DNA from: Coriobacteriales bacterium | GTDB taxonomy: Bacteria > Actinomycetota > Coriobacteriia > Coriobacteriales > UBA8131 | Direction: 5' to 3' | DNA length: 64,000 bases | NCBI GenBank assembly: GCA_031263025.1 | Contig: JAISGO010000038.1 | Location: 3,038 to 67,037 of the forward strand | Program-made: the position numbers and the translations under genes | Part shown: positions 36,241 through 59,011 of the stretch, piece by piece | Layout of the letters: the number at the start of each line of letters is the position of its first letter | Position numbering within the stretch: position 1 is the stretch's first letter | Notes under the pieces: generated by a model | The model's database searches: none | Told to the model about the DNA's origin: nothing | Seen by the model: only the letters and a program-made list of their open reading frames with translations

Positions 36241-37644
36241 ATGAGACATAAGTCTCGCGAGAAGATAACCACCTATACCCTCATGAACAAGAACACCCCT
36301 GTTCTTGAGTTCGAGTATGCTCTTGCTTCCTCCACTATAACTGCTATCACCGCTCTGATTAACCCGGCGTATGCGCCTCTCGACGCATCACGCGCTTATA
36401 GCGATGGCGTGATAACCGAGGAATCCCTCAACGAGTGGTGGAGGAAGCGGGGCATCCCCTCTTCCCGTCAACATTTAGCAAACGCAGAAGACGTACTGCC
36501 GGCTTCGATGATGGAGCTACTTGAACACAACTATGGTCTATCGCTTTCCGATCAGTATTGGCTCAACGATTCGCGCTCGCCCAAGAGATGGGCCGAAGTG
36601 AACTTCTTCACCAATCCTTTTAGTGTCGACATCGGCCGTGCGCTTTTCGGCGGGGTGTCTTCGGAGGAGGCATTAAGCAACGACTTTTCCCTTATCTCAC
36701 CCGACGTTACCACCGGCGGGGTCTTACAAAAGAAGTGGATTATCGACGAAGGCCAACGCGTTCTCGTCAAAGGCGCCGAGGGCCAAGATCGCCAACAGGT
36801 CTTTAACGAGGTGATTGCCACCGAGCTGTATAGCAGATTGCTACCGCCAGATGAATACGTTACTTATAAGCTTATCAAAGAGGGCCATAAAGTCTATTGC
36901 GCATGCGGGGACATGATAGACATTGACGAAGAACTTGTAAGCGCAAAAGCGATTCGGCTGCATTTCGCCCGAGAGGAGAAAACGAGCGACTACGAACATC
37001 TCGTAAATTCTTACGAAAAGCTCGGCGTCAGCCATGCGGTTACAGCTACTGCCTTTTCCAAAATGCTTGTCTGCGACGCGCTTATGGCAAACGAGGATAG
37101 GCATACGGGTAACTTCGGCGTCATTAGGGACGTGAACAGTCTGGAGATCAAACGCATCGCCCCCCTTTGGGATACCGGTAACTCTCTCTTCTTCGACAAT
37201 GCCAGTCTTCTTTTGACACCTGGCTACGAATGGGAGTTCCGTTCAAAACCGTTTGCGGCGCGTATGAAGACCCAACTGGAATATGTGGACGATTATTCTT
37301 GGTATGACCCCAAATCCCTCAAAGGGTTCAGAGATTACGTGGCAGAGAAACTTTCGGAGATCGCACTTTATAAATCGTCTGGCCTAGACGTAGCGATTGC
37401 CGCTAGTGTCGATTGCCGCCGCGACTATATAGACAAGCAAGCTCGCGAATGGCAACTGAATCACAGCCGGAATCATATGTACAACGAAGCCCAAATCGCT
37501 AAACCCAGCGACGGGAAAAATCAAGTTCAACCGAACCTCGGTCCGCACCACATGGAGGACCTTGTTGCCCAAACGACAAGGGTTTCCGAAGCCCGCGAAG
37601 AGACGCGCGGAGGGCATGGCGGGCACGAAGAACCTAAACGCTAG
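36241..37644 (+). CDS. HipA-like Ser/Thr kinase toxin homolog with portable C-terminal tail
   Basis: HipA_C catalytic loop MANEDRHTGNFGVI; RBS GGAGGGG; tail NLGPHHMEDLVAQTTRVSEA. Confidence 0.7.
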   Translation: MRHKSREKITTYTLMNKNTPVLEFEYALASSTITAITALINPAYAPLDASRAYSDGVITEESLNEWWRKRGIPSSRQHLANAEDVLPASMMELLEHNYGLSLSDQYWLNDSRSPKRWAEVNFFTNPFSVDIGRALFGGVSSEEALSNDFSLISPDVTTGGVLQKKWIIDEGQRVLVKGAEGQDRQQVFNEVIATELYSRLLPPDEYVTYKLIKEGHKVYCACGDMIDIDEELVSAKAIRLHFAREEKTSDYEHLVNSYEKLGVSHAVTATAFSKMLVCDALMANEDRHTGNFGVIRDVNSLEIKRIAPLWDTGNSLFFDNASLLLTPGYEWEFRSKPFAARMKTQLEYVDDYSWYDPKSLKGFRDYVAEKLSEIALYKSSGLDVAIAASVDCRRDYIDKQAREWQLNHSRNHMYNEAQIAKPSDGKNQVQPNLGPHHMEDLVAQTTRVSEAREETRGGHGGHEEPKR

Positions 37645-37656
37645 AAGGAAACGGTG

Positions 37657-38460
37657 ATGACGACCCAAGACCTCATAAACGCGCTACTGGAGCAACGCAG
37701 GTTGCAGATAAACGGTAACGTCTACTGGCAGACCCAGATCGACCTGGCCTATAACTCGAATAGGATCGAGGGTTCCCAACTCACCCACGAACAGACCCGC
37801 TACATCTTCGAGACACAGACGATCTCCGGCGAAAACGTTCCCGTAGACGACGTGGTGGAGATGAAGAATCACTTCCGCATGTTCTATTACATGCTGGACC
37901 ATTTCAAGGAACCCGTGAGCGTCGAGACCATCCAAAGCTATCAGGCAATCCTCAAGGCCGGCACCTTTATGTCGGAGGACCCGAAGATGAACGTGGGGGG
38001 ATGGAAGCTCATCCCGAACGCGGTCGGCAACACCACTACGTCGCTACCGGGACAAGTCGATAACGACGTGAGGGCGCTCCTCGCCGCCTATAACAGGCAC
38101 GTCGAATCCGGCCACGAGGTGACGCTCACGCAGATCGCCGCCTTCCATGCACAGTTCGAGGCGATCCACCCCTTCCTCGACGGCAACGGGCGTACCGGTC
38201 GCATCATCATGTTCCACCAATGTCTCCAGGCGGGACTTATCCCGCCCATCGTCATGGACAAGACCAAGGCGGCCTACTACGCCGGCCTCGACCGCTGGCA
38301 GAACCATAACGACAGCAAACCGCTTCTGGACTATCTCGAAGAATGTCAGGCTGATTATCGCTCAGAATGCGAGTTCCTCCTTGAGGGCAAAGGCAAAGAT
38401 TTGAGTGGCCGCAAACCAGCCGATGTTGGCTACGAGGACATCTTCAAGGCGGACGAATAA
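37657..38460 (+). CDS. Fic-domain AMPylase, class II (N-terminal inhibitory motif)
   Basis: HPFLDGNGRTGR canonical Fic motif; SNRIEG matches (S/T)xxxE(G/N); starts 9-12 nt after the HipA-like stop. Confidence 0.85.
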   Translation: MTTQDLINALLEQRRLQINGNVYWQTQIDLAYNSNRIEGSQLTHEQTRYIFETQTISGENVPVDDVVEMKNHFRMFYYMLDHFKEPVSVETIQSYQAILKAGTFMSEDPKMNVGGWKLIPNAVGNTTTSLPGQVDNDVRALLAAYNRHVESGHEVTLTQIAAFHAQFEAIHPFLDGNGRTGRIIMFHQCLQAGLIPPIVMDKTKAAYYAGLDRWQNHNDSKPLLDYLEECQADYRSECEFLLEGKGKDLSGRKPADVGYEDIFKADE

Positions 38461-38477
38461 GCTTTAGAAACTCCTTG

Positions 38478-38497
38478 ACGCCGCCTGCGGGCGGCGT
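38478..38497 (+). terminator. rho-independent terminator candidate after fic
   Basis: ACGCCGCC-TGCG-GGCGGCGT followed by TTCCTTT. Confidence 0.6.
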
Positions 38498-38537
38498 TTC
38501 CTTTGGCGGCTTTAGCCGCCTCATGACGTTCTTTCCA

Positions 38538-38590
38538 TTACCGTCTCAAGGTTGTATAATCACATTTAACGGTAACGCTGAATAGCCCGT
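38538..38590 (+). other. oriT candidate (left module): 7-bp IR with 24-nt loop followed by GGTAACGC
   Basis: TTACCGT (38538-38544) / ACGGTAA (38569-38575) then CGCTGAATAGCCC; same layout as the right module; upstream of mobC. Confidence 0.4.
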
Positions 38591-38810
38591 TGGTGACAAA
38601 TTAACTCCGCTAATTTTCTCCAACGGCATTCACTCCGAGTCCTGCCAGACTCGGAGAGGCAAACCGCCCGAGGCTTCGCCACCCGGTCGGTTTCGCACAA
38701 AAGACGCAGACTTTGTGCGGGCGTGTCGGCCTGAGCCGCCAACGTCAGGGGGAGACCCCTGAGACCCCTGGTAATGGAGTCCGCAACGACCGAAAGGAGT
38801 TGCGGACATA

Positions 38811-39242
38811 ATGGCAAGACCTCACTTGAAAGATAACGGCAGAAGCCGGAGGGTTCACTTCGCTGTCACTCCAAAGGAGTATTCGAAGATAAAGGTTCAG
38901 GCTAAAAGTCTGAACCTTACCATCTCCGCCTATATTCGTCAGCGTGCCCTCTCAGATGTTACTGTCTTTTACGCCGGTGACGACGAAGGTCTCGCTAAGA
39001 TCCGTTCACAGCTACTCCGCGCTTTCGCAAGGAACAATCAAGCGGTAAAGGCAATCAACTACATTAGTAACGGTCTTCGCGAAAACTACTTTCCAGATTC
39101 GATTAGGGAAGACCTCAAGAATTTCGCAAACGAGAACGCTCCTTATTTCTCCGATACCGCGAATCAAATCAGCGATTGCCTTGCCGGTATTTCTGACTTC
39201 TATCATTCATTCAACAAGCTTCTTAAAGAAGGGAGAATCTAA
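38811..39242 (+). CDS. mobC: MobC-type relaxosome accessory protein (left)
   Basis: RRVHFAVTPKEYSKIK..ISAYIRQRAL RHH; TAATG overlap with next gene. Confidence 0.65.
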   Translation: MARPHLKDNGRSRRVHFAVTPKEYSKIKVQAKSLNLTISAYIRQRALSDVTVFYAGDDEGLAKIRSQLLRAFARNNQAVKAINYISNGLRENYFPDSIREDLKNFANENAPYFSDTANQISDCLAGISDFYHSFNKLLKEGRI

Positions 39243-39742
39243 TGCTAGACATTTGCGCTAAAAGGGATACGCCTTACGTGTATCCAAGCCTGCGTAGTCT
39301 CATTTCCGAGGACTGTCGTTTCAGTCTCTTCAAGGCGGATAGTCTGCTTAAAGGAGACATAATCGGCGAGTATCATGCTAAACTTTGCGGTCTATTCTGG
39401 GGGAGGCAACCTCGTAGCGGTCGAGCTACGCCTCTAGTCGCCTGTCTCTTCCTTATCTATACGGCAGACGAAAATAACAAAATCGTTGAACTTGAAAATA
39501 AGTTCATTACCGCTTCCGCTTGGGATAATAACCTTCATAAACCTCTTTTCGACTCGCCTTCGGCACCGCCACCAGACGACACTCTAGCTTATTCTGATTG
39601 GCTCGCTTCATTGCATATTGACGAATCCGCAGAACCGCAAAAATATCTTGCACTTAGGAGCATCCCCATCGGTAGTTATATCACTTGCACATTCGCCCTC
39701 AACCGTAACGGGCATGGGGTACTTCGCGACTGGATCGTCTGA
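39242..39742 (+). CDS. hypothetical protein (left module only)
   Basis: translationally coupled on both sides (TAATG, TGATG); no counterpart between mobC and relaxase on the right. Confidence 0.5.
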   Translation: MLDICAKRDTPYVYPSLRSLISEDCRFSLFKADSLLKGDIIGEYHAKLCGLFWGRQPRSGRATPLVACLFLIYTADENNKIVELENKFITASAWDNNLHKPLFDSPSAPPPDDTLAYSDWLASLHIDESAEPQKYLALRSIPIGSYITCTFALNRNGHGVLRDWIV

Positions 39743-41244
39743 TGCCTGAACTCCGTCTTCAAGCCGCACACCGTAAATGCTTTGGCGTTGCTGAGTATCT
39801 ACGTTACGGGAAAGGCGAAAGCTACTTTACGAACAAACGTGAAGGAAAGACTCGTGTTCGCGCCTTCGGTGGTTTTAACCTTGCCGGCGACATCTTCGAC
39901 TGGGATCAGCAGATGGACGAAACTCGAGAGATGGCCGGAAACGACCTCCCGTATCGTGGGCGCCGGGCACGGACTTACAATCACTTCGTCCTCTCGCCCG
40001 ATCCTGCGGACGGGCTTTCCTATGAAGATGTCCTAGCCCTCGCGGAAGAATACGCCGCGCACTTCTTCGGCGACGGTGAAGTCCGTGGTACCATTGGCCA
40101 GTTTGAGAGCGCCATTATCATACATGACGACGGAACGAACAATGTGGTACATGCGCATGTGATTGTGAACAATACCGATCTCGATACCCTCAAGCGTATT
40201 CATCGTGACCGCAGAGACATCAAGGAAATGTATGACTTCGCGGAAGAGCTTGCGAAATCGCATGGGTATCATTCTTTTACGGAGACACATGAGTCTGTTC
40301 CTGCTAAGGTCGGCGAGTTCGAGATGGGAACAAGGATATTCTCCAAGCCTAGACCGATTAGTTTTGCCGAGCGTCACGCGATGGAAGCGCATGAAGGCTA
40401 CTCCTGGAAGGAGGATCTCGCCCAGCGTGTCCGGGTCGCCTATGAATGCGCGAGCGACATGAAGGGTTTCGTCCTTGCCTGCAAGGACCTCGGGGTGACG
40501 GTGGAGAAGTCGAAGGCGAAAAACTACGCCGGCGACTTCCTCTACCGTATGGCCGACGAGCCCACGCATTGCTGTCGTGCCAACAAGCTCGGCACAGACT
40601 ACCGCTCCGGCAACCTCACCCGCCACTTCGCCCGAAACGAGAAGCGTGGCCTCTGGAAGCCACGCGATGGCCAGGCGGCCGAAGTCGCGAAGGTGTTCTG
40701 GCCGAAGGGTATCCGCCGGGTCGGCAACATCGAGAAGGGAAGCGGTATCAGCCTCCACGAGGCCTTCCAGGTGATTGACTTCATGCGCGAAGTGCATGTG
40801 AGCGACTACACGCAGATAAAGCGGATTAGACCCTCTTCCGAGGACATGCGCGAGCGTCTGGAACGTTTCGCCTACGTCGCCGAACACGCCCACCTCAAGG
40901 TCAGGGACACCACGAAACCGGCCGCGAAGCCGCAGGCAAAGCAAAGCGCACCTATCGTCGAGGACGGCAAGATCGTCGGCACGGCGGACGCGAAGACCAA
41001 GGCGCTGTTCGCCACCGTGAACAAACAAGCGGCCGCAAGAAAGAAACAGATTGCAGCTATGACACCATCGGAGCGTGCTGCCGCAGCAGTCGCAGCACAA
41101 CGAAACGCACAACGAAGCCGGCCACAGCAAGCACAGCGCCGCGCCGCGCCTCAGCCACAACGTCCCGCGCCGCGACCCCAAGCGAGACCGCAACCGCAGC
41201 CACAGCGCAGCCGTCCGCCTACCCGCCACTCTCCGCAACGCTAA
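39742..41244 (+). CDS. MOBQ/MobA-VirD2-type relaxase (left)
   Basis: IHDDGTNNVVHAHVIVNNTD (HxDx..HxH), N-terminal Tyr region AEYLRYGKG; Pro/Gln/Arg-rich tail. Confidence 0.8.
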   Translation: MPELRLQAAHRKCFGVAEYLRYGKGESYFTNKREGKTRVRAFGGFNLAGDIFDWDQQMDETREMAGNDLPYRGRRARTYNHFVLSPDPADGLSYEDVLALAEEYAAHFFGDGEVRGTIGQFESAIIIHDDGTNNVVHAHVIVNNTDLDTLKRIHRDRRDIKEMYDFAEELAKSHGYHSFTETHESVPAKVGEFEMGTRIFSKPRPISFAERHAMEAHEGYSWKEDLAQRVRVAYECASDMKGFVLACKDLGVTVEKSKAKNYAGDFLYRMADEPTHCCRANKLGTDYRSGNLTRHFARNEKRGLWKPRDGQAAEVAKVFWPKGIRRVGNIEKGSGISLHEAFQVIDFMREVHVSDYTQIKRIRPSSEDMRERLERFAYVAEHAHLKVRDTTKPAAKPQAKQSAPIVEDGKIVGTADAKTKALFATVNKQAAARKKQIAAMTPSERAAAAVAAQRNAQRSRPQQAQRRAAPQPQRPAPRPQARPQPQPQRSRPPTRHSPQR

Positions 41245-41270
41245 TCGCAAAAGACAGAAAGGAACCTACC

Positions 41271-42014
41271 ATGCAAGTCAAGATCTACTACCAATCCGGT
41301 CGGGTCGCCGTCTTCGATACGGCGAACTTCACCATGCCCGAGCCTTTCGGTCCCAAGGACAAGAACATCCTCACCAACTTCGAGCTGAACCTCGACAGCT
41401 GCCAGAACGAGGATTCGCTCGGCCTTTACATCGACGTCTATTACTACGACATCGACCCTGGTGTCGGTAAACGACCGGAAACCGCCACAGCCCTCCGGGC
41501 CGGGAGGAAGGAATCGAAACTCACCTTTCCGAGCATCCGATCCGGCTACCGCTTGCTTTTAACTGACAAGGAGGGACTTGCGGACGTCGGTTATATCGAA
41601 GTCGATGGAAAGATAGTAATGTGGCGCCAAGGCGACGACCTCATCAACGCCAACAAGTTCGAGATCCAGCAGTTCATCTGCTACAACTCCACAACGGCGG
41701 AATCTTATAACACTAAGGTCTTAGACCTCTTCCGCTACGTCAGGAACGCCGAGGGCGGACGCGAAGAACACGGACCGACCGATAAGCAGATCGCCGAACG
41801 TCTCGGTTACACCGAGGCGGCGCTTTACAAGGCCATGCGCGACGAGGCCGCGAACGTCGATACTATCGAAGACGAGGACATGGCAGGAGTAGGGGAGGAA
41901 GATGAGAGCGAAAGCGATACTCCCGAGCCACCAAGTCCGCAAGAACAGCCCCAGGAAGCCCCCTCAGAGGCCATTGAGGGCCTTGCAGACGAATACCTAG
42001 CCAATCTCTCGTAG
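41271..42014 (+). CDS. conserved hypothetical protein with HTH-like segment and acidic tail (paralog of 56026..56742)
   Basis: MQVKIYYQSGRVAVFDT vs MKVNVYFENGRVNIFDT; TDKQIAERLGYTEAALYKAMRDE; follows the relaxase in both modules. Confidence 0.6.
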   Translation: MQVKIYYQSGRVAVFDTANFTMPEPFGPKDKNILTNFELNLDSCQNEDSLGLYIDVYYYDIDPGVGKRPETATALRAGRKESKLTFPSIRSGYRLLLTDKEGLADVGYIEVDGKIVMWRQGDDLINANKFEIQQFICYNSTTAESYNTKVLDLFRYVRNAEGGREEHGPTDKQIAERLGYTEAALYKAMRDEAANVDTIEDEDMAGVGEEDESESDTPEPPSPQEQPQEAPSEAIEGLADEYLANLS

Positions 42015-42053
42015 AACCCGTCAGGACGCCCCGAGAAGCCCTCTGGGCGTCCT

Positions 42054-42339
42054 CCTGCCCTCTTCTCTCGTTACCCTTCCCCAATTTTCCAGTCAACTTT
42101 TACCTCTCCGCTTTTCCCGCTACCTCCTCCACACCGCATTTCCTAACCCGTCACCTGCACCACCTCCTCCTTCGGACTTCCCCTCTGCCTACTCCTCCAT
42201 CTAGCCACAGGACCCGCCTACGGTCAAGGGCCGCTCGGGGCCATCACGGTTACCGCTGGACGCGCGCATACGCCCGCGCCTCAGCTCCCTAAGACGTGAT
42301 CGCCCCTGCGCTTGAACCCTTGACCGTAGGCGGGTCCTG
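42054..42339 (+). other. non-coding module: ~150-nt polypyrimidine tract plus 132-nt long-stem hairpin (left)
   Basis: perfect 23-bp stem CAGGACCCGCCTACGGTCAAGGG (42208-42230) / its complement (42317-42339); conserved loop GGTTACCGCTGGACG...CCTCAGCTCCCTAAG. Confidence 0.7.
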
Positions 42340-42397
42340 CGGCGTCATGCCGGCGTAGACAAAGGGACGAAGTCCCAAGATCAGAAAGGAGCCTCAC

Positions 42398-42817
42398 ATG
42401 CAGGCGACACAGGAAAAGCGGATGGTGAATCTGGAGGACAAGCGGACAATCGAGCAGGCAAAAGTCATTGCCATCAAATACCTGGAGAAAGGTAACTTCA
42501 AGATCGTCGCGCAGGATTACACCTCGACGGCGGGCGTCGCTGATTACGTCTTCTACGAGAAAGACGATTTGGTATTCGCAAGCGTCGGCCTCGGGGACAA
42601 CGAGGGGAACTTCCCGGAGCATGATTGCTCTAGCGAACGCAAGGCGGCCGAGAGGATCGCCCTCGACTATTTCACCTCCCACCCCCACATCAACTCCTGC
42701 CGCGTCCGCTTCGATAACATCGACGTCTGCTTCGCAGGCCCCTCCGGCCAGCAGGCGATGGTGAAGCACCACCGTGACGCCTACTCCACAGACGACGACT
42801 ACTCGCCCATCGGGTAG
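42398..42817 (+). CDS. YraN/UPF0102-like (endonuclease fold) protein, catalytic residues apparently lost
   Basis: layout AKVIAIKYLEKGNFKIVAQ..GVADYVF..LVFASVG..RFDNIDV parallels YraN; paralog of 55250..55660. Confidence 0.55.
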   Translation: MQATQEKRMVNLEDKRTIEQAKVIAIKYLEKGNFKIVAQDYTSTAGVADYVFYEKDDLVFASVGLGDNEGNFPEHDCSSERKAAERIALDYFTSHPHINSCRVRFDNIDVCFAGPSGQQAMVKHHRDAYSTDDDYSPIG

Positions 42818-42882
42818 CGCCGCCGGTGAGGGGGCGTTTCGCCCCCTCACCTTTCCTGCGCGTTTGTCGACGCTCGCTTCCA

Positions 42883-43145
42883 GGTAGAATAGGGGAGCGA
42901 GTTAGCGTTTCGCCGGGTGCGCCTAATCTTCCCGTGGGGAGAGGAGGTGATGCCCTTATGGATGTCTTACAGCTGATAACCGCAGCGATCCGGCTTTTAC
43001 TGGTCGTGGCGAAACTGCCGAAAGCGTTCAGGCGTTTACGCCAGGAAAGGAAGAAGCGTCCATAAAGGACGCTTCCTAATCTTAATCGGCGCACCCGGCG
43101 TCAGTCACAACCACGGGGCGCTAACTCGCTTGATTATACCACGGC
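42883..43145. repeat. 263-bp direct repeat, copy 1 (copy 2 = 53466-53728)
   Basis: read directly, ~93% identical, same orientation in both copies. Confidence 0.9.
42958..43065 (+). CDS. 35-aa hydrophobic/basic peptide (type-I-toxin-like candidate), copy 1
   Basis: MDVLQLITAAIRLLLVVAKLPKAFRRLRQERKKRP; SD GGAGAGGAGGTG; identical peptide in copy 2 despite 6 nt changes. Confidence 0.5.
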   Translation: MDVLQLITAAIRLLLVVAKLPKAFRRLRQERKKRP

Positions 43146-43157
43146 TTGAATAAGGAA

Positions 43158-43379
43158 AAGGCCGGGCACACTACGGCCCGGTCTTATTCGGTTGATGAAA
43201 CGTTTCAATCCACGTGCCTACTGAGGATAGACACGACGAGGCTATTATACGTCGTCTTCTCTGCCTACACCGCGCTGATTATTCCTATTCTGCTTTTGAA
43301 GGGTTCGGCCTGCTTGCGCGGCGCTCGCCCTTGTCGCTCCGGCGACTGTATCATCCATCTTTCGAGGACCGAGGTGAGG
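43158..43379. repeat. ~220-bp direct repeat, copy 1 (copy 2 = 43858-44077): tail-coding segment plus terminator
   Basis: read directly; contains hairpin CCGGGC..GCCCGG followed on the minus strand by a U-rich run. Confidence 0.85.
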
Positions 43380-43409
43380 ATAGCCTTTTTGGCTTTTTTG
43401 CTCGACACG

Positions 43410-43832
43410 CTACATCCTCGTTAAGACGTTATTTGACACATAGAGGTTGCGGCGTCTGAACTCCGGAGGACTGTCGTCTCGCATGACTTTCACGAGTTCT
43501 GGCCTCAGCTCCCCTATAGGCCTTCCAGCGAGCAAAGGCCGATCAAGGAAATACTGCGGCTTCTCGGTCCAAGTGGGTACGCGCAGGTTAAAATCATGTG
43601 CGAGCTTTTCGGCCTCTGCGGCATATTCCGCCATGTCGTCGCATGAAACGTCATAGCCATCTTGCGGGATAGGTTCATACTCGATGAACGACTGTCGCTG
43701 TCTCGGTTTGGCCGCGTAAAAAGCATCGAGGAAATTGCCGTTTGCAGTTGCCGGATCCACGCCTAATGCGCGTTGTGCCATCACTTCACGGAAGTTCAGC
43801 GGTCGCCTATGTAGCAAATCCCTCATTCGCAT
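43410..43832 (-). CDS. hypothetical 140-aa protein ending at a TAG that is in frame with a 54-codon shared tail
   Basis: ORF ..NNVLTRM-TAG-RVEQKSQKGYPHLGPRKMDDTVAGATRASAAQAGR..REDDV* (43409-43245). Confidence 0.5.
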   Translation of the reverse strand: MRMRDLLHRRPLNFREVMAQRALGVDPATANGNFLDAFYAAKPRQRQSFIEYEPIPQDGYDVSCDDMAEYAAEAEKLAHDFNLRVPTWTEKPQYFLDRPLLAGRPIGELRPELVKVMRDDSPPEFRRRNLYVSNNVLTRM

Positions 43833-43942
43833 ATTTTACCACGGCATCAAGAAAGACAAGGCCGGGCACTACGGCCCGGTCTTATTCGGTTGATGAAACG
43901 TTTCAATCCACGTGTCTACTGAGGATAGACACGACGAGGCTA

Positions 43943-44788
43943 TTATACATCGTCTTCTCTGCCTACACCGCGCTGAGGGTTCCTGTTTTGTCCTTGGAAG
44001 TCCCTTCCTGCTTGCGCGGCGCTCGCCCTTGTCGCTCCGGCGACTATATCATCCATCTTCCGAGGACCGAGGTGAGGTACAGCCGGCTTAGATTTATCCT
44101 CGTTAATTTTCTGTCCCGTTCTCTCTTTCGAGAAGTCAGTACCGACAAGGCAATCCTCATAAAGGAATAGCTTCAAGGGGGTCGGTTCGTTCGTTTCGTA
44201 GAAGTCCGTGAGCGCTTTCCTGAACCGGCTTAACTTGTTCTCCGCGATAGCGAGGATGCCGAACCCCTGAGAAATGAGGTAATGATTCGCTGCGAGTTGC
44301 GCCGTCCGTTTATTGCCGTCGAAGAAAAGCTGCTTACGACAGACCCAGCACATTATGTCGAGGCCCTTCTCGGGGCCTTCGGGTCCACGTAACATGCTCT
44401 CGAACCCTTCCTTATCCATCTGTTCGTTTGGAATGTCGGGTCGCCATGTCGTGCCGCCGATCCTCACGTCCACCGTCCTGACTTTCCCAGGTTCCCTCGT
44501 AACCCCGGCCTCGCCGATAAGCTGGTTGAACTCTTTCAGCATCCGGAAATCAAGTGGCACCTCGATTTCCTGCAAGCAATACTCCCAAGCGTGTTTGAGG
44601 TTGTTGATGGCGATGGTCTCGTTTACGGAGAGACCTGACACGGTTCTCCCCTCGAAGATCTCGGCGGTGTCCGGAAAAGTTACGTTGATTCCCTCTAGCC
44701 TGGCCTCTTTCCATATACTATCGACCACAAGACGCTTGGCGTACCAAACGTTCTCCTCTTGCGTCATATCGAACTTGTTCTCGAACAT
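43943..44788 (-). CDS. Fic/Doc-family protein with non-canonical motif (Gln in place of catalytic His) and portable C-terminal tail
   Basis: CRKQLFFDGNKRTAQLAANHYL aligns to HxFx(D/N)(A/G)NKR; N-terminal ARLEGINVTF. Confidence 0.7.
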   Translation of the reverse strand: MFENKFDMTQEENVWYAKRLVVDSIWKEARLEGINVTFPDTAEIFEGRTVSGLSVNETIAINNLKHAWEYCLQEIEVPLDFRMLKEFNQLIGEAGVTREPGKVRTVDVRIGGTTWRPDIPNEQMDKEGFESMLRGPEGPEKGLDIMCWVCRKQLFFDGNKRTAQLAANHYLISQGFGILAIAENKLSRFRKALTDFYETNEPTPLKLFLYEDCLVGTDFSKERTGQKINEDKSKPAVPHLGPRKMDDIVAGATRASAAQAGRDFQGQNRNPQRGVGREDDV

Positions 44789-44814
44789 TATCTTTCCTAG
44801 CTTATTCTAACAGC

Positions 44815-46497
44815 TCATTTAGTCTTGGCCGACTTGGTGGCCGAGGTCGCCGAGAGGGCGGCTTTGACGCCATCGGGTCCGCTATGGTAGACGACGACCT
44901 TCACGGCGTACTTCTTCTTGTTCGCGAGCTTCAGGGTCGCCTTGTGGGTGGAGTTTGCCTGGTAGGTCTTGTGAGACCATTTGGAGGAGCCGGACTTCTT
45001 GTAGCAGACCTGGTAGTAGGAGACGTTGCCTCCGCTGGTGGAGTAGTCTTTCCAGGAGACGGAGAGCTTGTTGTTACCGGCTTTGAGCTTCAAGGAAGAG
45101 ACCTTATGCGGGTAGACCACGAAGACACCGATGGCGAGCTTCGTTACCGGCTTGTAGATGCTGCTACCGGCGCAACTCACGGAGAGGGTGTAGCGGCCGA
45201 CCTTGGTGGGCGTTGTGGCAGAGCCGTTGTAATAGACGGTGAGCTTACCGACGGGAGCGACAAGGGCGGACACGTTCGCCGAGAGCGCCTTCTTGTCAAA
45301 GGTCGCTTTATGGCTGTAGCCGAAGCAAGAGGGCGTGAGGGCCTTCTTGGCCACCGTCGGCGTAGGCGTAGGGGTTGGCTCGGGCGTCGGATCCGGAGTC
45401 GGGCCAGGCGTCGGCGTAGGGTCGGGAGTAGGGGTCGGGGTCGGGTCGACGTCTGACGAGGAAACCGGCTTGTAGTAAGCGCAGAGCGCGAGGCTGCCGT
45501 CGCTTGCGACGGTGCCGGAGAGCTTGTTTGCGGCATTCGCCGCGTCGAAGGTGTAACCGCTGAAGGACGCGCTCGGGTTCCCGCTCGTGTCCTCGGGGAC
45601 GCTCACGGTCGCACCGACCGTGCCGCTAAGGGTGCCGCCGTTGCCTAAGATGGTGCCGTCGTCCGCATAGTAGGTGACGCTATAGGCGGCGGTCGCCGCT
45701 GGTGTCGGGGTGGGAGTGGGATCGGGTGTAGGGGTAGGCGTAGAATCGTCTGCTGGATCCTTCGAGATCCAGGCGTGGAGATCTGCGGGTTGGTCGGCAT
45801 AGGGCGCAGAACTCCAGGCTTCGCCATCGGGTTGGCATTGACCGGCGGCTACCTCGTCGGCCACGAAGTCGTAATAGCCGTCCGCCGTATCGGTCGGGGT
45901 AGCGGTTGTGCCACCGCACAGGCTTTGAAGCGAGCATGAACCAAAAGGAACGTCCGACCCCTTAATTACGTACCCGTCCGGGTCGGCTTTCGCCGCCAGG
46001 GCGTCCTTCTCGGAGATGGTGGCTGATCCAGCGGTTTGGTCTACCTCGTCGATTTCAGGGATAATTTCGCCGTTCTGGTCATGTAGACCAGAGATGGGGC
46101 AGTTCCAGTTATTGGGGCGCTGATCACCCAGGAAACCCATAGAGGGGTCTGCGACGTCTGCTTCTGTCGACCATGTTCCAACGTCTTCGCCTGGATGTGC
46201 TTGTATCTCAGGCAGATGTTCTTTGATGTACTTGATGGTGACCTCTGACATGTACGCCCAAGGATAAGGAGGATTCCAGATATTAGGGTCGTTTGTACCT
46301 TTATAGTAAAGGCCTATTATGGGATACCAATCATGTACATCTTGCCAATGCAAGGTATAAACCCAGTGACCTGATTCCGACCCGCTGTCATCTGCGAAAG
46401 CCGGCTGGCTCGGTTTGCCGAGAAGCGAAGCGGCGAGGAGGAATGTCAAAGCGACTGCTAGGGCGATTCCTGCGATATGTAAGAGTTTCCTTGTCAT
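44815..46497 (-). CDS. secreted surface protein with Pro/Thr linkers and C-terminal Ig/FN3-like domains (paralog of 53728..54993)
   Basis: signal peptide MTRKLLHIAGIALAVALTFLLAASLL..AFA; PTPTPDPTPTP linkers; ATG 46497 lies 2 nt after the upstream stop. Confidence 0.7.
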   Translation of the reverse strand: MTRKLLHIAGIALAVALTFLLAASLLGKPSQPAFADDSGSESGHWVYTLHWQDVHDWYPIIGLYYKGTNDPNIWNPPYPWAYMSEVTIKYIKEHLPEIQAHPGEDVGTWSTEADVADPSMGFLGDQRPNNWNCPISGLHDQNGEIIPEIDEVDQTAGSATISEKDALAAKADPDGYVIKGSDVPFGSCSLQSLCGGTTATPTDTADGYYDFVADEVAAGQCQPDGEAWSSAPYADQPADLHAWISKDPADDSTPTPTPDPTPTPTPAATAAYSVTYYADDGTILGNGGTLSGTVGATVSVPEDTSGNPSASFSGYTFDAANAANKLSGTVASDGSLALCAYYKPVSSSDVDPTPTPTPDPTPTPGPTPDPTPEPTPTPTPTVAKKALTPSCFGYSHKATFDKKALSANVSALVAPVGKLTVYYNGSATTPTKVGRYTLSVSCAGSSIYKPVTKLAIGVFVVYPHKVSSLKLKAGNNKLSVSWKDYSTSGGNVSYYQVCYKKSGSSKWSHKTYQANSTHKATLKLANKKKYAVKVVVYHSGPDGVKAALSATSATKSAKTK

Positions 46498-46499
46498 AG

Positions 46500-46892
46500 C
46501 TAGGCCCACCCTTCCGGAGCGATTACGGTGGCGATTTCCTCGCCGCTCTGGTAGATGTTCCACATGCCGCCCGGCGTTCCCGGCAGGTCTTTCAGGTCGT
46601 CGTTCCTATCGTAGATGAGGTTGATGCCGCCGGGCAGCTTCCCGTTTTCCATTGCGAGCCAGGCGCCGATGTCTTGTAGCCAGGGAGATTCGGTCGCGGT
46701 GAAGGTCTCATGAAGTCCAATGAGGGTAATGCCGAGCGGGTCAAGTCTCGGGAGGCCGTCTATAGACGACCAATTGCCGATAATCGCCTCGGCACCGTCC
46801 ATACTGCCCCCGAGACTCGTGACGCCATAGACGATGATTCCGCTCTCCTGCCCGGTGAGTTCCTGTAATGAGCTGTACTCCGTCATGTTCAT
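46500..46892 (-). CDS. hypothetical 130-aa protein
   Basis: ATG 46892 after GGAGAT; ATGA overlap with upstream ORF. Confidence 0.5.
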   Translation of the reverse strand: MNMTEYSSLQELTGQESGIIVYGVTSLGGSMDGAEAIIGNWSSIDGLPRLDPLGITLIGLHETFTATESPWLQDIGAWLAMENGKLPGGINLIYDRNDDLKDLPGTPGGMWNIYQSGEEIATVIAPEGWA

Positions 46893-47110
46893 ATCTCCTT
46901 TTCTTTGCCAGTATAGTCCTTGTTTCCGTTTTGCGCTACATATGCGGCATACGCCGCCCGCCATTCCTTCTGAGTGCAACGCTCGAGGTTTTTGCGGTAC
47001 TCGCCACGTTCGTAGTACTTCATACCGCGACGGACGAAGGTGTTGAAGCAGTCGTAACTGTCACCTTCATAGATGAAGTGACTATCCTTTGTTCTCTCTA
47101 GCCGTTCCAC
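46889..47110 (-). CDS. hypothetical 73-aa protein (first gene of operon)
   Basis: GTG 47110 preceded by AAAGGAG; promoter directly upstream. Confidence 0.45.
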   Translation of the reverse strand: MERLERTKDSHFIYEGDSYDCFNTFVRRGMKYYERGEYRKNLERCTQKEWRAAYAAYVAQNGNKDYTGKEKEI

Positions 47111-47132
47111 AGTCTGCTCCTTTCTTTAATAT

Positions 47133-47161
47133 AGTATAGTATATACTATGCTATATGTCAA
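47133..47161 (-). promoter_or_regulatory. promoter TTGACA-17-TATACT with left-module operator motif
   Basis: minus strand TTGACA (47161-47156), TATACT (47138-47133); spacer CATAGTATATAC resembles the parA(L) operator. Confidence 0.55.
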
Positions 47162-55249: not shown

Positions 55250-55660
55250 TTAATCTCCCGCCGAGTAGGCATCTCGGTGATGACGAAGAAAGGCCTTACT
55301 TTTACCTAAGAGGCCAACGGCGATGATGTCGAAACGGATACGGCAGGATTCGTAGTTATGAGTGGAGAGGTAGTCGATGACGAGCTTCTCAGCGGCTTTG
55401 CGTCCTGCCCTGATCTCCTCGTTAGTCTCCTCCGGTAGCTCTCCGGTAGTGGAGGCTCTCACATCCGCGAAAACGAGTTCGTTGTCTTCTTTGTAGATGA
55501 GGTCGGCTTGACCCGATCCTGAACGCCAGTCTTTCTCTAAGACTTCGATTCCCTGCCTTTTAAGGTAAATGGTAGCTACCTCTTCTGCCTTGTTCAATTG
55601 CTCTTCAAACTCTTCTTTCCTTGCCACCCTGCTGTCAATCTGGTTTGCTACTGCCTGCAT
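55250..55660 (-). CDS. YraN/UPF0102-like protein (right)
   Basis: GQADLIYKEDNELVFADVR retains D..(D)xR positions; paralog of 42398..42817. Confidence 0.6.
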   Translation of the reverse strand: MQAVANQIDSRVARKEEFEEQLNKAEEVATIYLKRQGIEVLEKDWRSGSGQADLIYKEDNELVFADVRASTTGELPEETNEEIRAGRKAAEKLVIDYLSTHNYESCRIRFDIIAVGLLGKSKAFLRHHRDAYSAGD

Positions 55661-55715
55661 TTCAGGCTCCTTTCCTTTGGGGTCTTCCTGGCCCCGTTGT
55701 CAATGCCGATGTGAA

Positions 55716-55835
55716 GCCACGGCGCAAGTGGTTGCGTCAAGGGGACAAGGCCTCGCTTTAAGGAGCTGAGGCGATGGCCAGCCATCGTCCAGCGGTAATC
55801 GAGGTCGGCCCTTGCGCGGCCGCTCGCGCCGTGGC
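55716..55835 (-). other. 120-nt long-stem hairpin (right-module counterpart of 42208-42339), followed toward 56025 by a polypyrimidine (minus-strand) tract
   Basis: GCCACGGCGC (55716-55725) / GCGCCGTGGC (55826-55835); minus-strand loop ATTACCGCTGGACG..CCTCAGCTCCTTAAAG. Confidence 0.65.
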
Positions 55836-56025
55836 AAAACGTGAGGCTTGACAGCGGAGGCAGGAAAAGAGGGAAAGGTCTAAAAGATTGCAGGCGAACA
55901 AGATTATCGGTTCATGCAGCGGGTGTAAGAGGTTTGAAGCTGGGCGGGGAAAAGGGAGAGAGAGAGATTTGAAACCTCCCTCCCAACAGGGCAAAGTGAA
56001 GACAATGGTAATGCGTTCAGGTGGC

Positions 56026-56742
56026 TTAAAGCTGACTCTCCAGGAAGGAAGTCACGCCATCCTCGTCGGTGGAGGTCTCATCTACTGGGGCTTCAGGAGA
56101 AAGATCATCGGGGGACTTGGCCAAGATGTAGTTCTCAGGAAGGACGGGCCCGTCCTCGGCATCTGCTTCTTCCGTTGCGAGGTTTGCCTCTTCGTCGGCT
56201 AAGGCTTTCTGCAGGGCTTTCGGAGTGTAGCCGAGCTTGTCGGCGATCTCCTCGTCGCTTATGCCAAGATTGGCTTGTTGTAGATAGCGGAAGAGCTCCG
56301 CCACTTTCGCGTTGTAGGAGGCGACTGCCGGGCTCGAGTAACAGAGAAGCTCCTGGGCCTTGAATTTATTGGCGTTGATAAGCTCTCCACCTTGTTTCCA
56401 CAAGACGAGTTCGTCGTCTACGGTTACTTGTGTGATGTAGTCAACCTCGTCTTTACCGACAAGTGCGGTACGGCAGCAGAGCAGGTTGTTCGAGTAGGGG
56501 ATTTTGGTAAAGCGTCCTGGGGTGTGCTCCACTTCCGCATAATGGGGAGACTCACCTCCGCTACCGCCAGGGGCGTCGTGGAAGTAGACGTCGAGGCAAA
56601 GCCCGGTCTCGTGAATGGTGTCGAGGGTTAGCTGAAACTCAGTCACAACGTTCTGCTCGCCCTTGATCGGGTCTTTAGTCGTATAACAGTCTGTGTCGAA
56701 GATATTGACACGACCGTTCTCGAAATAGACATTGACTTTCAT
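56026..56742 (-). CDS. conserved hypothetical protein (paralog of 41271..42014)
   Basis: same position after the relaxase; SDEEIADKLGYTPKALQKALADE. Confidence 0.6.
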   Translation of the reverse strand: MKVNVYFENGRVNIFDTDCYTTKDPIKGEQNVVTEFQLTLDTIHETGLCLDVYFHDAPGGSGGESPHYAEVEHTPGRFTKIPYSNNLLCCRTALVGKDEVDYITQVTVDDELVLWKQGGELINANKFKAQELLCYSSPAVASYNAKVAELFRYLQQANLGISDEEIADKLGYTPKALQKALADEEANLATEEADAEDGPVLPENYILAKSPDDLSPEAPVDETSTDEDGVTSFLESQL

Positions 56743-56763: not shown

Positions 56764-58185
56764 TTAACGGGCACCTCGAGAAGGCGAGCTGCGGCCTCTC
56801 GATTGCGGACTATGTTGCTGCGGCCGAGAACCGGAGGAGCTGTGGTGCCTTCCACTACCGCTTCCAAACATCTCGCGTTCCCTGTCCCGAGCCGTGCCTT
56901 TCTCATATTTGCCGACCCCTCTAGCCTTATTGCGGGCTGCAATGTCCCGAGCCTGTTCTCCAAGAGGCGATAACGGACGCTGGCTAACAGAGCGCGCCGG
57001 TAGCATCTTCGCTTCACTCGCGACTTTCTGGATGTTGGCAAGTTCGGCTTTCGCCGCCGGGTTCCGCACTTCGAGCTTGTCGAAGCCGGCAAGCGAGCAG
57101 ATACCGAAAGTGTTTATGAAGGATAGTGCTCGGGAGATGTCTTTAAGGCTGTAATTCGCACCAGGAGCGACTGTCGCGACCTTTCTTGCACCTCTAGGCC
57201 AAAGTTGTCCCGCGATGGCCGCAGCGGCGCTCTCAGGGCTCTTCTGACGCTTTATCTGGGCGTCGCGAGAGAAGTATCGTTTGATATTGCCCGAGCGAAA
57301 GTCATTGCCGAGTTTCCAGGCGCCGACCTGGCGGCTCGGCTGGTCGGTCAAGCGATAGATGAAGTCTCCCGCGTGTGCTTTCGAGGTTGAATAGTCGAGG
57401 CTTATGCCCATCACGTTCAAGGAGCGGACGTAGCCGGACATATCCTTGGCCGTCTCGTAGGCGATCCGTACCCGGTCAGCGATGTCCGACTTCCAGGAGT
57501 AGGTTCCGGTGCCTTCTGCACGTATCTCCGCGAAGCTGCGGTTACGCGGTGTCGTGAAGGCTTCCCGCTCGGGCTCCGGCACCTGGTAGTGTTCATCTCT
57601 TTCCTCCTCGGTACGTGAGAGCGTGCTCGCATAATCGTTGTTGAAATAGTGCAAGTGATGTGCGCGGGCGAGGTCGTTTAGGCTATGCCGGAGACTGCGG
57701 TTCGAGGCGTCGGAGATCTGTAGCCTCTTGCCGTTTGTGAGGTCTGTGTTGTTCACGATAACGTGGGCGTGGGCAACACCGTGGCTGCCGTCGTCATGGA
57801 CTATCACCACCCATTCGTAAAGCCCGAGGCTACCAGTATGTCCATCTGAGCCGAACCAAACCCGGCAATACTCATTCGCAAGCTCCAGCACATCATGGGT
57901 AGACAGCTTGTCGGCGGGATCAGGCGAGAGCAGGAGATGATTCGCCCTTACGCACTTACGTCCCCGCCATCCGGTATCGTTTCCGGCGGCCTTGCGGCTT
58001 GCGTCCATCTCTTTGTCCCAGCTGTCAAGGGGGTTGAGTGAGACCATGTTCTCCGCGTGAAAGGCACGGACGCGGTTACGGCCGAGGGCGAGGTTCTTGC
58101 GGTAGGCTTCCCCTTTGCCGAAGAGCAGGTAGTTGCGCACTCCAACGATAGAGCGATGCACCCTTCTTGCCCCGAACTTCGGCAT
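56764..58185 (-). CDS. MOBQ/MobA-VirD2-type relaxase (right)
   Basis: VHDDGSHGVAHAHVIVNNTD; N-terminal VRNYLLFGKGEAY. Confidence 0.8.
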   Translation of the reverse strand: MPKFGARRVHRSIVGVRNYLLFGKGEAYRKNLALGRNRVRAFHAENMVSLNPLDSWDKEMDASRKAAGNDTGWRGRKCVRANHLLLSPDPADKLSTHDVLELANEYCRVWFGSDGHTGSLGLYEWVVIVHDDGSHGVAHAHVIVNNTDLTNGKRLQISDASNRSLRHSLNDLARAHHLHYFNNDYASTLSRTEEERDEHYQVPEPEREAFTTPRNRSFAEIRAEGTGTYSWKSDIADRVRIAYETAKDMSGYVRSLNVMGISLDYSTSKAHAGDFIYRLTDQPSRQVGAWKLGNDFRSGNIKRYFSRDAQIKRQKSPESAAAAIAGQLWPRGARKVATVAPGANYSLKDISRALSFINTFGICSLAGFDKLEVRNPAAKAELANIQKVASEAKMLPARSVSQRPLSPLGEQARDIAARNKARGVGKYEKGTARDREREMFGSGSGRHHSSSGSRPQQHSPQSRGRSSPSRGAR

Positions 58186-58187
58186 GG

Positions 58188-58628
58188 CTAAAATCCTGCC
58201 TTCCGAAGCTTCGCGTCAACCGCGAACTGGAGAGCGACGACCCTCTGTTTCGCTTCCTTGATCTCTTGTTGGGTGGCGATGATCAGAGGCTTGGTGTCGC
58301 TTACGAAGTGGGCGAGGTCTTCGCTGATGGTTTCTACGGAGAAGCCCTCTTCGAGTCCGTAGGCGATCCGGTTGAGTGCTTTGATCCCTTGGGAGTTACG
58401 ATTGCCGGCAAGGGTGATGGCGTTTGACAGCTCCCTCATCGCCGCGATTAGCTGTCCCGATCCGAGTGGGTAATAATCGCCAGCGACATCGAGCGCGGAG
58501 GAACGCAGGAACTCGGAAAGAGACACGCCAGAAGCCGCTGCCGCAGCCTTTATCGCCTGGCGCTCAGCGACCGTCAAGCGAACAGCGAGGGGTGCCGTCT
58601 TAGGGGTGACTGTCTTGGGTCTCGCCAT
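58188..58628 (-). CDS. mobC: MobC-type relaxosome accessory protein (right)
   Basis: MARPKTV..LAVRLTVAERQAIK..LSEFLRSSAL; start set to ATG 58628 (both MobC copies start MARP). Confidence 0.65.
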   Translation of the reverse strand: MARPKTVTPKTAPLAVRLTVAERQAIKAAAAASGVSLSEFLRSSALDVAGDYYPLGSGQLIAAMRELSNAITLAGNRNSQGIKALNRIAYGLEEGFSVETISEDLAHFVSDTKPLIIATQQEIKEAKQRVVALQFAVDAKLRKAGF

Positions 58629-58920
58629 ATGTCTTGAAGCGACCTTTCCGTATCGTTTGCTACAAACGAACGGTCGGTCGCCAACTGGCGAGAGCTGGGC
58701 CGAATGTCTTTTGAGGGGTGTGGGGTCTCCCCCACGAAGCGCTAGGCGCTTTCCTCGGGGCGGCAAACCCGGCAGGGTTTTCAAAGCCCCCACGGCAGGA
58801 CTGCCGTGGAACCGGTCAGGGTTGCGTAGGCCCTCTCCGGTTCGCCTCCCGAGCTTTAAGCTCGAGCCAGTGGTATAAGCCGAGACGAAAACGCAGTTTT
58901 CGTATTCGGTTTATACGGTG

Positions 58921-58969
58921 CTGGGCGCGTTACCGCATAAGGGATTTTAACATAGAAATAGCGGTAACG
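58921..58969 (-). other. oriT candidate (right module): 9-bp IR + GCGGTAACGCGCCCAG
   Basis: CGTTACCGC (58928-58936) / GCGGTAACG (58961-58969). On the minus strand the IR is followed by TAACGCGCCCAG, which resembles the RSF1010/R1162 nick region GGTAAGTGCGCCCT (from memory). Confidence 0.5.
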
Positions 58970-58981
58970 TTGGTCAAGAGA

Positions 58982-59011
58982 AGAAAAAATAAACCGCCCA
59001 AAGGGGCGGTT
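58982..59011 (-). terminator. rho-independent terminator after abiEii
   Basis: minus strand AACCGCCC-CTTT-GGGCGGTT followed by TATTTTTTCTT. Confidence 0.7.

Follow-up and report, generated by a model that had tools for sequence, protein, structure and literature searches.

Covarying ~200-nt hairpin rods in mobilizable elements of Coriobacteriales are putative single-stranded DNA initiation elements

The 64,000-nucleotide stretch of a Coriobacteriales bacterium analysed here (contig JAISGO010000038.1 of assembly GCA_031263025.1, positions 3,038 to 67,037; hereafter the window) carries two diverged mobile elements. Each contains a long imperfect hairpin, or rod, between a conserved open reading frame (orf) and a yraN-like gene. 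All base pairs of the rod are kept between the two copies, despite flanking proteins that are only 36-38% identical between the two modules. The rod structure is therefore under selection. Related hairpins were found in other loci, and the rods appear to form a structure-defined family in mobilizable elements of Coriobacteriales, with a function that is predicted from sequence. Tentatively, and with somewhat less than even confidence, we read the rod as an initiation element on the single-stranded DNA (ssDNA) of the transferred or displaced strand, serving as an ssDNA promoter for the adjacent gene and/or as a priming site.

The rods and their main parts are positioned in the window as follows.

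42170..42375, minus strand: left rod, a long imperfect hairpin of ~206 nt, which folds better on the strand antisense to the genes.
55675..55880, plus strand: right rod, ~206 nt; the genes are on the minus strand, so that the better-folding antisense strand is the plus strand.
42208..42339, no strand given: left core hairpin, with a perfect 23-bp stem 42208-42230 / 42317-42339.
42225..42230: left CAAGGG box, which pairs with CCCTTG at 42317-42322; TTGACC, a -35-like hexamer, is on the 3' arm.
42250..42292, no strand given: left apical motif, made of TTACCGCTGGACG, a variable mini-hairpin and CCTCAGCTCCCTAA; exact pattern match, the mini-hairpin showing compensatory changes.
55758..55798, read on the minus strand: right apical motif, made of TTACCGCTGGACG, a mini-hairpin and CCTCAGCTCCTTAA.

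The initial annotation, made from the sequence alone, had described a hairpin of 120-132 nt in each module. The hairpin is real, but the inverted-repeat arms are 50-52 nt each (42181-42230 / 42317-42366 on the left, 55685-55736 / 55815-55866 on the right), so that each element is a rod of ~200 nt, longer than earlier described. The perfect 23-bp left stem lies exactly where it had been placed, and the right stem, GCCACGGCGC / GCGCCGTGGC, was recovered at 55835-55826 / 55725-55716 on the minus strand. Each rod starts within what had been called a polypyrimidine tract and stops ~20 nt short of the ribosome-binding site of the yraN-like gene. With RNA parameters, the regions first reported fold at -95.4 kcal/mol (left, z = -9.5) and -68.4 kcal/mol (right, z = -5.2), and none of 200 dinucleotide shuffles was as good. 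With DNA parameters, the 206-nt left rod reaches -79.6 kcal/mol on the antisense strand (z = -10.7) and -63.6 on the sense strand (z = -8.75); the corresponding values for the 206-nt right rod are -58.9 (z = -6.8) and -51.1 kcal/mol (z = -4.75). Slightly longer stretches give -84.6 antisense and -65.9 sense on the left (42160-42400, 241 nt), and -64.1 antisense and -54.9 sense kcal/mol on the right (55658-55890, 233 nt). When 240-nt segments were slid along the entire 64-kb window with DNA parameters (2126 positions), the left rod ranked first and the right rod second. The regions resembling an origin of transfer (oriT) in the same elements ranked fourth (right) and sixth (left).

For comparison of the pairs, the antisense strands of the two rods were aligned. 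Each of the 66 aligned base pairs is a standard one in the left and the right copy alike; at 15 of them both partners have changed, and at 6 only one. As a control, the 3' partners were slid by 1-3 columns, which left 35-45% pairing and 0-3 compensatory pairs. The covarying stems claimed at the outset are thus borne out, and the broader idea of a functional single-stranded element, drawn from a conserved loop on such stems, is upheld as well. The parts that do not vary between the copies are the apical stem with its internal loop, the CAAGGG/CCCTTG box and portions of the lower stem. As had been stated, both copies carry the apical motif TTACCGCTGGACG(N)CCTCAGCTCC without a change; it is present nowhere else in the window, where 0 occurrences are expected by chance. 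We also considered, and rejected, that the antisense apex encodes a small peptide; direct reading of the sequence places the motif in different frames in the two copies.

Related loci were gathered by alignment searches with the YraN-like protein (2 useful relatives) and with the relaxase (8 relatives), which provided L035, L043, L038 and others. L035 and L043 are two metagenomic contigs that together contain three related rods. In L035, a rod is located directly 5' of the gene of a YraN-like protein (P0004), which is followed by ParA, ParB, sortase and SpaA genes. The order in L043 is integrase, rod, orf126, YraN, ParA, NikA, relaxase and further genes. This rod, L043a, has a second copy within a 775-bp exact repeat, 5' of orf126, orf48 and the SSB gene, and a paralogue 67-78% identical to it, L043b, is found 5' of orf38 and an HTH_3 gene. 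L038 contains the relaxase, a homologue of the conserved orf (31% identity) and a shorter hairpin that has the 9-mer CGTCCAGCG in common with the window apex. L057 was excluded from the comparison, its contig stopping 165 nt past the conserved orf. A global MAFFT alignment of the five full rods (the two window copies, L035, L043a and L043b) was unusable across two subfamilies, and a comparison of arms anchored on the box was used instead. The CAAGGG/CCCTTG box is common to all five. The 22-nt arms beside it show 18-50% identity between rods, and in 4 of the 5 rods an arm pairs best with its own partner (-17.7 to -28.6 kcal/mol, versus -4.7 to -14.4 kcal/mol with foreign arms). The exception is L035, with an own-arm duplex of -9.3 kcal/mol that is no better than some cross-pairings. 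Conservation therefore extends beyond the two window copies, in a small sample. The related rods rank among the most foldable segments of their own loci; those of L035 and L043 do not carry the TTACCGC apical motif. All rods are co-oriented with the relaxase operon, and each stops 15-45 nt short of a start codon. A rod is present directly or nearly directly upstream of all four yraN-like genes found on mobile elements (the two window copies, L035 and L043), and there is none directly upstream of the chromosomal yraN beside rnhB (L036).

The imperfections of a palindrome distinguish its two strands, since a transition mismatch that appears as a G.T wobble in one strand is C.A in its complement. 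In the five rods together, wobbles favour the antisense strand by 25:8 (antisense:sense; left 7:1, right 8:3, L035 5:0, L043a 4:3, L043b 1:1). The DNA-parameter z-score is more negative on the antisense strand in 5/5 rods, and the left rod shows the greatest strand difference of the 2126 segments. Strand difference correlates in general with GC skew (r = 0.76); after regression on skew, the window rods still lean towards the antisense strand (residual z = -4.3 left, +2.1 right). Because the two modules have opposite chromosomal orientations, a replication-associated bias cannot explain both. The wobble asymmetry and the DNA z-scores argue against a sense-mRNA structure; they favour folding of the template (antisense) strand as ssDNA or, alternatively, of an antisense RNA.

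The antisense strand may also be the one that is transferred. The relaxase gene is usually located in the lagging region, so that genes co-oriented with it are templated by the transferred strand (PMC11541004). By this rule, in which the relaxase operon enters last, the antisense strand would be transferred, in agreement with the strand that folds better. The RP4 traJ/oriT sequence fits the rule as well. Candidate origins lie upstream of the mob operons.

38530..38800, no strand given: left oriT-like region, with the mob promoter, TTACCG / CGGTAA at 38538-38543 / 38570-38575, several hairpins and the blocks GCGTGTCGGC and GGGGGAGACCCC.
58730..58990, no strand given: right oriT-like region, with TTGACC-17-TATGTT, the repeat CGTTACCGC / GCGGTAACG at 58928-58969, several hairpins and the block GGGGGAGACCCC.

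An inverted repeat, TTACCG / CGGTAA, encloses the -10 box of each of the two mob promoters (38538-38575; 58928-58969) and is likely an operator. A GCGGTAA core had been proposed to link the rod apex to the oriT-like repeats. The repeat does occur at both mob promoters, but the common core measures only 6-9 nt, and GCGGTAA is found 10 times in the window where 7 are expected. In the left region, the blocks GCGTGTCGGC ... GGGGGAG(A/C)CCCC ... CCCCTGG (38715-38775) are shared with L048, L049 and L055, upstream of the NikA-like gene. The relaxases of these elements are no more than distant relatives (28-36% identity among those found), and the blocks are candidates for the oriT core or nic. Shared motifs could not be used to place the nick site, as several blocks are conserved and none gave the strand.

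In a consensus scan, neither strand of the two rod-bearing intergenic regions showed a sigma-70-type promoter. Promoters of other genes in the elements match 9-12 of the 12 consensus positions: TTGACA-16-TATACT and TTGACA-17-TATAAT for ParA, TTTCCA-17-TATAAT (left) and TTGACC-17-TATGTT (right) for the mob operons, and TTGACG-17-TATAAT for the gene that follows the right yraN. Within the rods, the CCCTTG box gives a -35-like hexamer on either arm (TTGACC; TTGACG/TTGCGC; TTGCAC/TTGCAG; TTGCAA), and a -35-like TTG(A/C)NN is found within the box in 5/5 rods. Past this hexamer comes a helix of 18-22 bp, followed in both window copies by a conserved 3x3 internal loop. A separate feature was observed near the promoter of the gene that follows the right yraN, a gene encoding a 421-aa surface protein. 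Just 3' of TTGACG-17-TATAAT (55107-55079), a perfect 19-bp palindrome, TATATACAAGCTATAAATA / TATTTATAGCTTGTATATA, occupies 55039-55078 and is probably an operator.

On this basis, a mechanism can be proposed for the rod as an ssDNA initiation element. After nicking of the mobile element at oriT, one strand would be transferred, or displaced by rolling-circle replication. The strand that templates the mob and yraN genes would then fold into the ~200-nt hairpin; the folding molecule would be DNA rather than RNA. The duplex stem would offer the CCCTTG(A/C)NN box as a -35-like element, the 18-22-bp helix below it and then the small 3x3 internal loop. Host RNA polymerase or primase may start an RNA on this pseudo-duplex, directed towards the adjacent gene. 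While the element is still single-stranded, such an RNA would allow early and transient production of the YraN-like homologue of an ssDNA nuclease, and the same RNA could prime synthesis of the complementary strand. Once the element is double-stranded, the hairpin would be gone and no promoter would be left. A promoter-type role is preferred to that of a pure single-strand origin (sso) because the rods are coupled to a start codon everywhere, because L043 has three rods of two types and because the double-stranded form has no promoter.

Ahead of the rods, the window copies also have pyrimidine-rich tracts and terminator-like hairpins.

42024..42060, plus strand: terminator-like GC hairpin with a pyrimidine/T-rich tail, just past the stop codon of the conserved orf (sequence read directly and consensus scan).
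42054..42200, plus strand: left G-poor, pyrimidine-rich tract, with 11 G in 147 nt; its last ~30 nt are the 5' arm of the lower stem.
55860..56025, minus strand: right pyrimidine-rich tract, 68% pyrimidine with 25 G in 166 nt; within it, at 55984-55958, lies a terminator-like hairpin.

A G-poor tract had been reported for both modules. The left one is indeed extreme, with the lowest G count of all 147-nt stretches of the window, the next most G-poor stretches being found only at ~61.3-62.8 kb, where G+C is lowest; the right one is modest, and neither has a counterpart in L035 or L043. On the folding strand the tract would be made of purines only and would not pair with itself, so that in the window copies it may act as a spacer that leaves the rod free to fold. 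In a sense RNA, the tract could just as well be a site where Rho loads.

The yraN-like genes that follow the rods encode proteins that match the UPF0102 family.

42398..42817, plus strand: left yraN-like gene, 139 aa, weak UPF0102 match.
55250..55660, minus strand: right yraN-like gene, 136 aa, UPF0102 match with E = 2.5e-11.

The catalytic E and K of the VEVK motif are S and G in the left protein and D and R in the right one. P0004 of L035 has Q for E, and the L043 protein is canonical. With catalytic residues replaced in some copies, some of the mobile-element YraN proteins may bind DNA without cutting it, as far as the sequence indicates. YraN was recently shown to cleave ssDNA as an endonuclease and to act together with ComM on D-loops that arise from incoming ssDNA (bioRxiv 10.1101/2024.02.06.579203). 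The genes behind the rods include those of SSB and YraN-like proteins, which fits an 'establishment' theme. Functions like that of YraN occur among early establishment genes, ssb and psiB being examples. It is conceivable, if improbable, that rod and YraN-like gene make up a two-part establishment module. The hairpin would fire only on incoming ssDNA and yield a mobile-element version of the transformation D-loop nuclease YraN, catalytically dead in some copies, that would act on the ssDNA or hairpin of the element itself, or block the action of host ComM/YraN and RecA there. Gram-positive mobilizable elements would then possess a switch of a new class, triggered by ssDNA and directed against recombination or defence, which would also be the first ssDNA promoter family outside enterobacterial-type plasmids.

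Several observations weigh against the rod being an ssDNA initiation element. With RNA parameters, the antisense strand is preferred in only 2/5 rods. The best -10 candidates on the antisense 3' arm are TTGACC-18-TAGATG in the left rod and TTGCAA-19-TAGGCT in L043a and L043b; they are weak, matching at most 3 of 6 positions in these three rods, and there is no -10 box at the analogous position in the right copy or in L035. Read-through from the mob operon could by itself transcribe the yraN-like gene, and the G-poor tract is missing from the related rods of L035 and L043. The nic-like motifs that were found are all on the sense strand, 3' of inverted repeats. These are GGTAACGCGCCC, in the continuation of the distal arm of the promoter repeat of the right module, ACCCTGCC, further downstream of it, and ATCCTCGCC, in L048, L049 and L055. 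We take GGTAACGCGCCC to resemble an RSF1010-type nic region and ACCCTGCC the nic of RP4, both resemblances being short. If these motifs are real, the sense strand would be transferred and the strand assignment made above would be wrong; herein lies the main weakness of the model. Examples are also few, with five or six rods from three or four elements, and pattern scans of GTDB genomes, JGI metagenomes, IMG/VR and PLSDB revealed no further copy. In GTDB genomes, the conserved-orf alignment gave 42 pattern matches, none of them confirmed, and an exact scan for the apical motif gave 0 matches. The 34 relaxed-motif matches in JGI metagenomes were judged to be chance, none having the mini-hairpin, the full CCTCAGCTCCYTAA or an extended stem. 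Three pattern scans of IMG/VR likewise returned chance matches only, with the partner box present in 0/64 and no strong hairpin among 120 others. In PLSDB, tblastn with the conserved orf found no match, and tblastn with YraN found only chromosomal-type yraN of Acinetobacter. A protein word-index search with the conserved orf retrieved only the query itself.

By presumed function, the closest known elements would be the Frpo/ssi ssDNA promoters (Frpo1/2 and ssi1-3 as class 1, and the sequence-unrelated classes 2 and 3 of pESBL and F). ssDNA promoters of this kind are large stem-loops that precede operons, and several classes without sequence relationship to one another are known (PMC9849209; PMC12672017). 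Like them, the rods are large imperfect stem-loops in non-coding DNA of a conjugatively transferred element, and they stand directly 5' of an operon co-oriented with the transfer or relaxase genes. For Frpo, roles as promoter and as primer have both been shown in vitro. Further likenesses are the diverged paralogues within one element (L043a/L043b, compared with Frpo1/Frpo2), the downstream genes for ssDNA handling (SSB and YraN-like, compared with ssb and psiB), the lack of a recognisable promoter in the double-stranded form, and a DNA fold of -80 to -89 kcal/mol in 3/5 rods, the range used for mining such promoters. In contrast to Frpo/ssi, the rods have no canonical -10 box, only the -35-like TTG box being conserved. 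Their host is one of the actinobacterial Coriobacteriales and not an enterobacterium, and they are carried by small integrative mobilizable elements that have an IS30-like integrase, not by a large conjugative plasmid. Moreover, the window rods are on the relaxase side of oriT, downstream of the relaxase, and not in a classical leading region. Sensitive blastn with the left region and its flanking genes and with the L043a rod gave no sequence match among 72,556 PLSDB plasmids; the Frpo/ssi sequences themselves were not aligned to the rods. This set presumably includes F-like and IncI1 plasmids. Among the options listed in the initial annotation, a Frpo-like ssDNA promoter or initiation site best fits the mob-module context, the promoterless gene and the antisense asymmetry, but a convincing -10 box and similarity to Frpo/ssi are both lacking.

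By position, the nearest analogue would be sso1 of ICEBs1, which lies in the intergenic space between the relaxase gene nicK and ydcS (PMC4595007). The window rods lie behind the relaxase gene and one further orf. As with known sso (ssoA, ssoT, ssoU, ssoW and ICEBs1 sso1), the rods are non-coding, strand-specific folded elements of roughly ~150-300 nt in which structure is conserved more than sequence, and the expected conversion of incoming ssDNA to double-stranded DNA would suit an element that has to become double-stranded before integrating. No similarity to known sso types was found, and the conserved sequence CS-6 (TAGCGT/A) is absent from 5 of the 6 regions scanned, the only match, TAGCGA, lying in the L043b stem and not in a loop; the RSB element was not searched separately. 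The rods differ from sso by their tight coupling to the start of the downstream gene and by their number, up to three in one locus, which is unexpected for a pure replication signal. In ICEBs1, in addition, it is the coding strand that is transferred, whereas in the rods the antisense strand is the better folder. As for the oriT repeats of MOBQ/MOBP systems (RSF1010, RP4, R64), the two modules do contain hairpin-forming repeats, and a short motif, TTACCGC, is common to the rod apex and the mob-promoter repeat. The rods are however 10x longer than such repeats and 3.5 kb from the oriT-like region, they have no adjoining nic-like sequence, and the motif is missing from related rods. Comparison with Rfam 15 gave no match at the gathering score over the entire window, and permissive scans of both regions returned only chance matches (E = 0.5-4.8, 14-16 bits versus thresholds of 40-79), so that the Rfam check proposed at the outset points to no known family. 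Nor is the element an intrinsic terminator, since a T-run follows neither rod.

Other readings of the rod have to be set beside that of an ssDNA initiation element. The most serious of these, which we nevertheless consider unlikely, is a structure of the sense RNA. It would be the 5' leader of the yraN-like mRNA or an intercistronic mob-yraN structure acting in stability, processing (e.g. as an RNase III site) or read-through, and the C-rich tract would be a Rho loading site that insulates yraN. The location of every rod immediately 5' of a ribosome-binding site suits such a role, as does the succession, behind the upstream orf in both window copies, of a terminator-like hairpin and a C-rich, G-poor tract. 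There is also a TATAGT hexamer just 5' of the L035 rod, and the RNA-parameter z-score is slightly better on the sense strand in 3/5 rods. However, the 25:8 ratio corresponds to an excess of C.A mismatches on the sense strand, and hence to a poorer fold in the mRNA sense. The rod does not pair with the ribosome-binding site, which stays accessible, so that no obvious switch is seen. Permissive Rfam thresholds did not help this reading, no sigma-70 promoter was found 5' of the rod in the window copies, and L035 and L043 have no G-poor tract. The cis-regulatory mRNA leader suggested earlier is thus disfavoured.

An antisense RNA, transcribed opposite to the genes and acting as a structured regulator of the mob-yraN transcript, would agree with the better folding of the antisense strand, which in both window copies holds with DNA and RNA parameters alike. 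We give this reading little credence, as there is no promoter-like site on the antisense strand within or downstream of the rod, no terminator past it on that strand, where a purine tract is found instead, and no Rfam match. A somewhat better case, though still an improbable one, can be made for an enzyme-and-site pair. The rod, as a cruciform or ssDNA hairpin, would be the substrate or binding site of the YraN-like PD-(D/E)xK protein, by analogy with oriT and relaxase or attP and integrase. YraN is a structure- or ssDNA-directed endonuclease, and the association with rods of all four mobile-element genes, not shared by the chromosomal gene next to rnhB, speaks for such a pair. Rods are found, however, where no yraN follows (L043b before orf38-HTH_3, the second L043a copy before an SSB operon, and L038), the left protein lacks both catalytic residues and P0004 one, and no known precedent was found. 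The least probable reading is a secondary relaxosome site, in which the apical TTACCGC would be a binding site of the NikA-like protein or the relaxase and work as a pseudo-oriT or in termination or regulation. It draws on the TTACCG / CGGTAA repeat around the -10 boxes of the two mob promoters and on the likeness between the right repeat arm CGTTACCGC and GATTACCGCTGG in the rod. But the GCGGTAA core is not enriched, the overlap in the left module is only 6 nt, nothing nic-like stands beside the rod motif, and the motif is wholly missing from the L035 and L043 rods. The secondary relaxase site put forward earlier, which draws on a 6-9-nt likeness, is not supported.

The genomic setting of the rods, in a metagenome-assembled genome of a gut Coriobacteriales, is that of a mobile region. 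Positions 1-31 kb of the window are chromosomal, with Obg, PriA, GltX and similar genes. From ~34 kb on, the two elements are arranged tail to tail (33902-43900; about 43400-62672). Each has, in this order, a divergent IS30-like integrase (HTH_38 + rve), ParA, toxin genes (HipA-like and Fic in the left element, AbiEii in the right), the oriT-like region, a NikA-like protein, a MobA/VirD2 relaxase, the conserved orf, the rod and the YraN-like (UPF0102) gene.

33902-35053, minus strand, and 61527-62672, plus strand: IS30-like HTH_38 + rve integrases, bounding the ParA side.
38811..41244, plus strand: left mob operon, with NikA-like 38811-39242, orf166 and MobA/VirD2 relaxase 39742-41244.
56764..58793, minus strand: right mob operon, with NikA-like 58188-58793 and relaxase 56764-58185.
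41271..42014, plus strand: left conserved orf, 247 aa, with a C-terminal part of helix-turn-helix (HTH)-like appearance.
56026..56742, minus strand: right conserved orf, 238 aa.
L038 6431-7099 and L057 2644-3321: further copies of the conserved orf.

The right element runs on into genes for sortase and SpaA/LPXTG-type adhesins. No type IV secretion genes were found among the orfs scanned, so that the two elements are considered integrative mobilizable elements. The pairing of integrase and mob module recurs in the related loci L038, L043 and L049. The conserved orf (222-247 aa, 31-37% identity between copies) has no Pfam match and always follows the relaxase in this lineage. Its N-terminal part is mostly beta; a conserved WRQGxDLINAxKF motif, an HTH-like segment in the C-terminal part (IAxxLGYT) and an acidic tail are its other features. 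Its AlphaFold2 model has a mean pLDDT (predicted local distance difference test) of 46, too poor for a fold search or classification.

Some other features deserve mention. In L043, the exact 775-bp direct repeat (rod + orf126) is located at 1384-2158 and 9348-10122, 7,964 bp apart, and several independent contigs of 7.2-7.95 kb break at this repeat. These breaks suggest that a unit of ~8 kb is circular or repeated in tandem, or that the rod copies recombine with each other. The most foldable segment of the same locus, at 10515-10761, is located 5' of the SSB gene; it has 81% G+C and folds at -95 kcal/mol on the sense strand. Its arms are complementary over a long range and a T-run is present, which would suit either a further rod or a terminator. 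Putative partition (centromere-like) sites are seen 5' of both parA genes and at one place within the right element (35065-35250, 47129-47156 and 60404-60515), in the form of palindromes and iterated AT-rich repeats of the ATAGTATAG type. In the chromosomal part of the window, two palindromes at 15140-15211 and 28943-29024 have a common core, GGGGACACTCTAAAT, and one of them has perfect 25-nt arms. They have the appearance of a palindromic repeat element, or of a terminator or operator common to both sites.

ssDNA promoters and priming sites decide whether a transferred element becomes established in its new host. To our knowledge, they have been shown almost only for F-like and IncI1-like enterobacterial plasmids. 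A published survey found no ssDNA promoter by homology in a Gram-positive island. Were the rods merely mRNA leaders, they would be an ordinary, lineage-restricted regulatory structure. If they are ssDNA initiation elements, the ssDNA-promoter principle would extend to Actinomycetota and to small integrative mobilizable elements, and the CAAGGG/CCCTTG box on covarying arms would provide a search model for more rods. The entry of ssDNA would then be linked to a mobile-element copy of YraN, a resolver of D-loops formed from incoming ssDNA.

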